Notes under the pieces: model-generated
The model's database searches: none
Seen by the model: the letters and a program-made list of their open reading frames with translations, nothing else
What the model was told of the DNA's origin: nothing
Made by a program: the position numbers and the translations under genes
Assembly: GCA_048939465.1 (NCBI GenBank)
Contig: JBHLPL010000024.1
Location: 1-21,203 of the forward strand
Direction: 5' to 3'
DNA length: 21,203 bases
Source of the DNA: Promethearchaeota archaeon
Lineage (GTDB): Archaea; Asgardarchaeota; Odinarchaeia; Odinarchaeales; JBHLKK01
Shown here: piece by piece, positions 17,971 to 18,158 of the stretch
How the letters are laid out: every line of letters starts with the position of its first letter
How positions within the stretch are numbered: the first letter of the stretch is position 1

Positions 17971-18140
17971 GGCCGGGATCAAGATGGCCGGGATACGCGA
18001 AAAAAAGCGTCCCGAAGGGGTAGGGGTAGTCCTGGCGGCCTGTGGACCCCGACATATAAAGGGGGACAGACAGACGCCATGTAAACCACTACGTGGTGCC
18101 ATAACCGCAGGCGGGGGTTCGAATCCCCCTCCCGGCCCCA
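17971..18140 (+). tRNA. tRNA-His(GTG) with three introns (8/9: 17995-18016; 37/38: 18046-18071; 39/40: 18074-18104) and a possible fourth (5/6: 17977-17991); G-1 and CCA encoded
   Basis: After removal the 76-nt mature sequence is G-GCCGGGA-TG-GGGTAGGGGTAGTCCT-G-GCGGC-CTGTGGA-GCCGC-AGGC-GGGGG-TTCGAAT-CCCCC-TCCCGGC-C-CCA. It has a perfect 7-bp acceptor stem plus G-1:C73 (the His hallmark) and perfect anticodon and T stems. The gene starts at 17986 instead if the 5' duplication is only leader. Confidence 0.93.
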
Positions 18141-18153
18141 CTTATACTTGGGC

Positions 18154-18158
18154 TTTTT
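18154..18158 (+). terminator. Candidate oligo(T) terminator after tRNA-His
   Basis: TTTTT run 13 nt after the CCA; archaeal intrinsic terminators are T-tracts. Confidence 0.35.

Follow-up and report, generated by a model that had tools for sequence, protein, structure and literature searches.

How can a tRNA precursor be matured if two of its introns are separated by an exon of only two nucleotides, and if the splicing motif of the second of these introns is missing from the primary transcript? The question is raised by an interrupted tRNA-His(GUG) gene in the window (the whole stretch of 21,203 nt that was analyzed). In its unspliced form the gene is missed by both ARAGORN and Rfam in a search of the window, in the whole of which ARAGORN reports no tRNA and Rfam finds only a tRNA-Leu at positions 15–120. 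The latter is a tRNA-Leu(CAG) with an insert of ~21–26 nt in the variable arm (scored at 57 bits by Rfam, with an insertion of 33 nt; the BHB-guided search removes offsets 49–74). The parts of the tRNA-His gene, together with two neighboring elements, are listed in Table 1.

Table 1. Features of the tRNA-His(GUG) locus (positions of the window)
Feature	Position	Strand	Remarks
tRNA-His(GUG) gene, G-1 to encoded CCA	17986..18140	+	155 nt unspliced, 76 nt spliced
Exon 1: G-1, acceptor strand GCCGGGA (positions 1–7), U8	17986..17994	+	pairs with TCCCGGC 18130–36
Intron A, 22 nt, position 8/9	17995..18016	+	BHB in all contexts
Exon 2: D arm, GCGGC (18035–39), loop C32–G37, anticodon GUG (18042–44)	18017..18045	+	
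Intron B, 26 nt, canonical position 37/38	18046..18071	+	strict BHB in precursor
Micro-exon, 2 nt, A38 + G39	18072..18073	+	
Intron C, 31 nt, position 39/40, relaxed HBh'-type	18074..18104	+	BHB only in B-deleted RNA
Exon 4: CCGC (40–43), variable loop AGGC, T arm, acceptor 3' strand, C73, CCA	18105..18140	+	
Upstream duplicate of 5' exon (GGCCGGGAT)	17971..17979	+	candidate alternative 5' exon, intron 17980–18016
TTTTT run, 14 nt past CCA	18154..18158	+	possible archaeal oligo-T terminator, by sequence inspection only

For the gene model, BHB-bounded segments were taken out of the locus in all combinations of up to three, which gives 618 products, and these were ranked according to the highest ARAGORN threshold (in % of the default) that they still passed. 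Only the joint removal of introns A, B and C yields a strong tRNA, at 118–124% of the default threshold, while the next-best of the 618 products passes 102% and has a malformed anticodon arm. The A+B+C product is a 76-mer recognized by ARAGORN as tRNA-His(gtg), with a cloverleaf of normal dimensions: an acceptor stem GCCGGGA/UCCCGGC, a 7-nt loop CUGUGGA with U33 and the GUG anticodon, a 4-nt variable loop and an encoded CCA. It also shows the anticodon stem GCGGC/GCCGC, as had been expected in the sequence-only reading of this DNA for the RNA freed of its introns. G17986 is G-1; it precedes G1 and lies opposite the discriminator C73 (C18137), which is followed by CCA, and the tRNA-His identity features (G-1, GUG, C73 and CCA) are thereby all intact in the spliced product. 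The AG of the micro-exon is needed for the C31-G39 pair and for the 7-nt anticodon loop, and hence for any tRNA-His-like product.

Other parses of the anticodon arm were tried and rejected. A single composite intron of 59 nt (B+AG+C) leaves a 4-bp stem and a mis-registered loop, and its product is called Thr(tgt) by ARAGORN at 102%; taking the AG from 18060–61 or 18068–69 leaves no complementary central helix and no BHB, as read from the sequence; and a 1-nt shift of intron B, to 38/39, would require UGUG to pair with CAGA, which fails, again as read from the sequence. The sequence-only reading had named, as an outcome that would contradict its own proposal, that B and C depart as one unit with A38-G39 supplied by different junctions; removal in one piece leads only to the weak product just described, and an AG taken from elsewhere to no BHB.

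The genome (1.96 Mb in 152 contigs, 91% complete) contains no second tRNA-His gene according to Rfam, ARAGORN, BLAST of the locus and the BHB-guided search, and a second copy was found in none of the three congeneric genomes. With no other tRNA-His in a 91%-complete genome, the interrupted gene presumably has to be matured. Introns B and C themselves have no copy elsewhere in the genome, where only chance matches of 11–13 nt were found (E-value at least 0.4).

Intron A raises little difficulty: its helix CGGG/CCCG and its bulges AU|A and AA|G are present in every context, independently of B and C. It can also be drawn in an alternative register (17996–18015, helix GGGA/UCCC), and we favor the 22-nt version because the Odinarchaeum homologue, which has no intron A, reads U-GGGG at this place. 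The 5' exon, GGCCGGGAT, occurs twice within 17971–17994, in copies that lie 15 nt apart and that are both kept in the three congeneric genomes. Use of the upstream copy, with an intron of 37 nt (helix CGGG/CCCG), leads to an identical mature tRNA, and the ARAGORN threshold passed is slightly higher (124%, vs 118% with the downstream copy). AT-rich boxes at ~17940–47 and ~17953–60 could serve either copy of the 5' exon.

For the detection of motifs we used a strict BHB scanner, which requires a 4-bp central helix (G-U pairs allowed), each strand of which is followed on its 3' side by a bulge of 3 nt, and sets the cut after the second base of the bulge. Position 32 of the tRNA pairs with the intron base located three before the 3' splice site, and the rule of the scanner is consistent with such pairing. 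In intron B, CUGU (18040–43) pairs with ACAG (18066–69), the bulges are GG|A (18044–46) and AC|A (18070–72), and the hairpin CCCC (18047–50)/GGGG (18062–65) provides an inner helix of 4 bp; motif, bulges, hairpin and the position of the micro-exon had all been given correctly in the sequence-only reading. The strict scan reports this motif in the intact precursor as well as in all its partly spliced forms. Intron B thus resembles the canonical 37/38 hBHBh' intron, as outlined in the relevant passages of PMC4090602 and PMC5829648, which refer to Marck & Grosjean 2003, in that its central helix is formed by positions 32–35 and the 3' end of the intron, with bulges 36-37|i1 and i-2 i-1|38 and an inner hairpin. 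It departs from the canonical form in its outer helix, for which a strict hBHBh' motif asks at least 2 bp: as the 3' strand of the anticodon stem is split by intron C, a single contiguous pair is left in the precursor, and the helix grows to 5 bp once C has been removed.

The tandem repeat ACAGACAG at 18066–18073 offers CUGU (positions 32–35) two pairing registers. The fold of lowest computed energy for the precursor arm is the shifted, non-productive one, in which CUGU pairs with the second ACAG at 18070–73 (-26.6 kcal/mol at 37 C); the productive register of B is at -25.3 kcal/mol, and a three-way junction closed by GUGG/CCAU and holding both hairpins at -25.9 kcal/mol, so that the three conformers span 1.3 kcal/mol. 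The shifted register may act as a kinetic decoy, or it may be no more than a side effect of the sequence of the micro-exon. Constrained ensemble energies of the whole precursor assign a low probability to the BHB conformers in every context and do not separate the contexts, the precursor and the B-deleted RNA differing by <1 kcal/mol; the nearest-neighbor model penalizes the bulges that the enzyme stabilizes.

Intron C contains a hairpin of 9 bp, including 2 G-U pairs, between CGCCATGTA (18075–83) and TACGTGGTG (18090–98), followed on its 3' side by CCAT (18099–102) and then AA|C (18103–05). Its central helix depends on what stands upstream of the AG|A bulge. In the precursor these four bases are AGAC (18068–71), of which one in four pairs with CCAT; in the B-deleted RNA they are GTGG (18042–45), and all four pair. 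The hairpin, CCAT, AA|C and the exchange of AGAC for GTGG match the sequence-only reading base for base. When the strict scan was run over all subsets of removed introns, the motif of C (GUGG/CCAU, AG|A, inner helix of 9 bp) was found only where B had been removed, with intron A present or absent. The computed fold leads to the same result: at both 37 and 70 C, the minimum-energy structure of the B-deleted anticodon arm is the predicted C motif, with stem 27–30/40–43, U33–G37 paired with CCAUA, the 3-nt bulge A38-G39-A and the 9-bp hairpin. The motif of intron C therefore depends on the absence of intron B. This much of the dependent cascade put forward in the sequence-only reading is borne out by scan and fold, while for its other half, an obligate order in the cell, we infer only a conditional statement: if the endonuclease requires the BHB motif of C, B would have to be removed before C.

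The motif of C is not a strict one. In strict register its outer helix has 0 bp and a second clean 3-nt bulge is absent; the 3' cut (A18104|C18105) falls in a 2x1 or 3x2 internal loop beside the 4-bp stem 27–30/40–43. With the 3' cut in an internal loop and without the outer helix, we class intron C as a relaxed HBh'-type rather than a strict motif. As to chance, pairing with GUGG is possible for 16 of the 256 tetramers, and when intron C is shuffled and read in the B-deleted frame, a 4-bp helix arises in 5.8% of the sequences; GUGG/CCAU alone is expected by chance in ~6% of cases. In 0.16% of the shuffles this helix is joined, with the spacing exactly kept, by an inner helix of 3 bp or more, and the inner helix of the real intron has 9 bp.

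The class is represented in our collection by seven species genomes, three from the host genus and four from an Odinarchaeum-like genus. The two other genomes of the host genus keep all three introns, at 93–95% identity. Among the three congeners, the exons show no variable site in 76, vs 11 in 80 for the introns (Fisher p = 0.0007), and the flanks vary at 20 of 46 sites; within the introns of these three genomes, bases in helices or bulges are variable at 0/21 sites, vs 10/58 elsewhere (one-sided p = 0.036). Changes in the hairpins are located mostly in the loops, and those in the stems comprise one C-G pair replaced by U-G in B, and one U-G replaced by U-A and one A-U by A-C in C. No compensatory change was found in the central helix of C among these three closely related genomes, the only carriers of C that we found; the exon strand of that helix consists of the anticodon and G37 and cannot vary. 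Of the metagenome scans made for more relatives that could reveal covariation, one was empty, and another returned four chance matches, all of them inside a coding region for a lipoprotein signal peptide.

The four tRNA-His genes of the Odinarchaeum-like genus (L030–L033; L033 is that of G003) possess a B-like 37/38 intron and no 39/40 intron. They carry an extra 13–14 nt exactly at the 3' junction of the B-like intron, which brings the insert in the anticodon arm to 34–35 nt, and also a clean intron at 53/54 (helix CACG/CGUG, inner helix of 3–5 bp, outer helix of 4 bp). Two models of the anticodon-arm insert score equally. In one, a mini-intron with the helix GCAG/CUGY is removed and leaves a canonical 37/38 intron; as the strand GCAG is shared, the mini-intron would have to leave first. 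In the other, the insert is a single intron of 34–35 nt, located at 38/39, whose helix (UGUG/UGYA) is weak. In both genera the anticodon-arm introns of tRNA-His are hence complex, though not in the same manner, which suggests that intron C was gained within the host genus or family. Intron C starts with ACGCCAU (18074–18080) and the 37/38 intron of the Odinarchaeum gene L033 with ACGCCAC, a resemblance too short to distinguish homology from chance.

The explanation that in our opinion accounts best for the locus, and which we regard as probable on the strength of the predicted structures, is that the only tRNA-His(GUG) gene found in the genome is spliced stepwise, with removal of B, ligation, and then removal of C. 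In the primary transcript, only B (at 37/38) of the two would present a helix-bulge-helix-bulge motif, and the alpha/beta splicing endonuclease would cut after G37 and before A38. The RtcB ligase would join G37 to A38, thereby placing G34–G37 directly before the A38-G39|A bulge; the arm could then refold, with GUGG pairing with the intronic CCAU beside the 9-bp hairpin, and present the HBh'-type motif of C. The endonuclease would now cut after G39 and before C40, and joining of G39 to C40 by RtcB would allow the anticodon stem GCGGC/GCCGC to close, the removal of A being predicted to proceed independently of B and C. Because ligation would precede cleavage of C, the 2-nt exon would stay on the 5' half and never become a free dinucleotide; were all four sites cut at once, the AG dinucleotide would need to be recaptured twice.

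Candidates for the enzymes of this pathway are encoded in the genome. There are two EndA paralogs, each with the PF01974 and PF02778 domains, which share 33% identity. One of them, the alpha paralog on C90, has the motif DHS and a Lys-rich insert of 8–9 residues, and the other, the beta paralog on C139, DVA, with Val at the place aligned to the histidine of DHS, which we take to be the catalytic residue from the M. jannaschii enzyme. Judging from these domains and residues, the genome encodes a predicted splicing endonuclease of the alpha/beta type, of which one paralog retains the putative catalytic His. An RtcB ligase is encoded as well. One of the two RtcB matches, on contig C31:2961–5708 (-), is split into two pieces (profile positions 1–57 and 45–426) that lie ~1.4 kb apart in a single open frame of 973 aa, as an intein-containing RtcB would look. 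The passages of PMC5829648 that deal with the Asgard EndA describe an (alpha-beta)2 enzyme with a loop that confers cleavage of relaxed motifs, and the relaxed HBh'-type of intron C fits the encoded alpha/beta enzymes.

The same enzyme properties lend some weight to a different reading, which we consider possible, if rather unlikely: the gene model is the same, and the order is not obligatory, since a broad-specificity enzyme also cuts C in the primary transcript. In this case GUGG/CCAU would close the three-way junction with the hairpin of C stacked on it via the continuous 3' strand, and B would be looped out as a large bulge, to be removed later as a perfect hBHBh' intron. The three-way-junction conformer lies 0.6–1.7 kcal/mol above the minimum, splicing of B leaves the context of the 3' site of C unchanged, the outer helix of B gains its four further base pairs only upon removal of C, and the alpha paralog encoded here has its Lys-rich insert at the place that matches the reported loop. 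As the 3' site of C is already relaxed, the enzyme must be able to act on a relaxed motif, and its tolerance might reach further. However, the 5' site of C would then be situated in a hairpin-containing bulge of 29 nt instead of 3 nt, and we found no report of such a substrate being cleaved; moreover, the relaxed types listed in the corresponding part of PMC5829648 (HBh', hBH and BHL) all keep the central helix beside the bulge that is cut.

A concerted processing of the precursor, either by four cuts without intermediate ligation and subsequent joining, or by departure of B+AG+C in one piece, would profit from the fact that the hairpins of B and C are both present in every low-energy structure of the precursor, yet we judge it very improbable: four cuts free an AG dinucleotide that needs two ligations, one-piece removal gives the Thr(tgt) product described above, and no BHB in the precursor excises C. 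We give equally little credence to the idea of a decaying or non-functional tRNA-His copy, with the functional gene hidden in the unassembled part of a genome that is 91% complete and in 152 contigs, and with a motif of C that is coincidental (~6% for CCAU/GUGG pairing), because exons are invariant and introns and flanks variable across three species-level genomes, the identity features are all intact, the spacing of helix, 3 nt, hairpin and helix recurs in so few shuffles even when no more than 3 bp are demanded in place of the 9-bp hairpin, and none of the three genomes has yielded a second tRNA-His.

The tRNA-His gene is not the only interrupted one in this genome, in which Rfam detects 24 tRNAs and ARAGORN 25, neither set including His. 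Many of the detected tRNA genes carry inserts of 90–140 nt total length. A genome-wide BHB-guided search, which was anchored on intact T arms and acceptor stems and is a partial survey rather than a census, added more genes with multiple introns, among them Thr(UGU), Thr(CGU), Tyr and Lys. Several of its products (Lys, Tyr, Ile) are still too long, which suggests that further introns were missed. In tRNA-Asn(GUU) (contig C118:3941–4062 (-), locus L038) the D loop has an insert of 30 nt with respect to Odinarchaeum. No single strict BHB removes the whole insert, and it can be removed as two adjacent pieces, the motif of one of which uses sequence of the other, so that an order of removal would again be implied; several parses score equally, and the gene also has a clean 18-nt intron at 37/38. 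The Odinarchaeales family of the host seems to join the Asgard lineages whose tRNA genes abound in introns. Heavy interruption of tRNA genes in Asgard archaea is described for Atabeyarchaeia and Freyarchaeia in passages of PMC11291895, and for Jordiarchaeia and Atabeyarchaeia in passages of the preprint 10.64898/2026.10.13.758758; as in those classes, the standard finders miss many of the tRNA genes here, and multiple non-canonical BHB introns are present. A search by terms found no passage on Odinarchaeia tRNA introns in either text, and in the preprint no passage on splicing order or on the interdependence of introns.

The principle of dependent splicing has already been described in Crenarchaeota and is handled by iterative annotation software, and we claim no new mechanism. 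The relevant passages of PMC3728597, PMC3978253 and PMC8450103 report multi-intron pre-tRNAs from Crenarchaeota (Thermoproteales), with nested or closely spaced introns, in which one BHB forms only after removal of its neighbor; as cited in PMC3728597 and PMC3978253, these cases go back to Sugahara et al. 2007 (RNA 13:671) and Tocchini-Valentini et al. 2009 (PNAS 106:20246). According to the part of PMC8450103 concerned with introns, tRNAscan-SE 2.0 iterates its intron search for the very reason that some introns must go before the BHB of a neighbor can form. Our case shares with the crenarchaeal ones the presence of two or three BHB introns per tRNA gene, the requirement of the motif for prior excision and exon ligation, by which cleavage and ligation are placed in sequence, and a host that encodes a broad-specificity endonuclease of the predicted alpha/beta type. 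Unlike introns of which one lies inside the other, B and C follow each other at a distance of 2 nt, and the exon part of the C motif is broken by B at a point between its central helix and its bulge; the host, too, is different, being an Asgard archaeon of the class Odinarchaeia. What is particular here is therefore the lineage, the serial introns and the 2-nt exon between them. Multi-intron pre-tRNAs are also known from Cyanidioschyzon merolae, for which the passages of Soma et al. 2013 (PMC3728597) on intermediates report a reproducible order of processing, followed by RT-PCR. There the motifs fold independently, the order is related to stability or position, and the 37/38 intron leaves last, whereas here the order would be set by structure and the 37/38 intron would go first.

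A more far-reaching interpretation, which in its entirety we offer as a tentative one and think doubtful, combines three elements: that the serial arrangement is a distinct variant of dependent splicing, that the order safeguards the 2-nt exon, and that C was gained by a gene that already bore B. If this were true, an exon segment upstream of the first intron would supply the central helix of the second, the order of B, ligation and C would keep the 2-nt exon from being released and lost, and this exon may be the shortest of any enzymatically spliced RNA. The gain of C after B is suggested, as part of the same interpretation, by the Odinarchaeum sister genus, which has a B-like 37/38 intron and lacks one at 39/40.

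As the standard finders miss the gene, the genome looks as if it were devoid of tRNA-His, and the correct reading of the interrupted gene completes its decoding set. With the stepwise pathway that we prefer, the structure-enforced splicing of tRNA in steps would have a representative outside Crenarchaeota, in the Odin class of the Asgard archaea. The locus also provides a compact substrate of 155 nt for three predictions, which concern the intermediate that is formed, the need for a ligation between two rounds of cleavage, and the survival of an exon of 2 nt.
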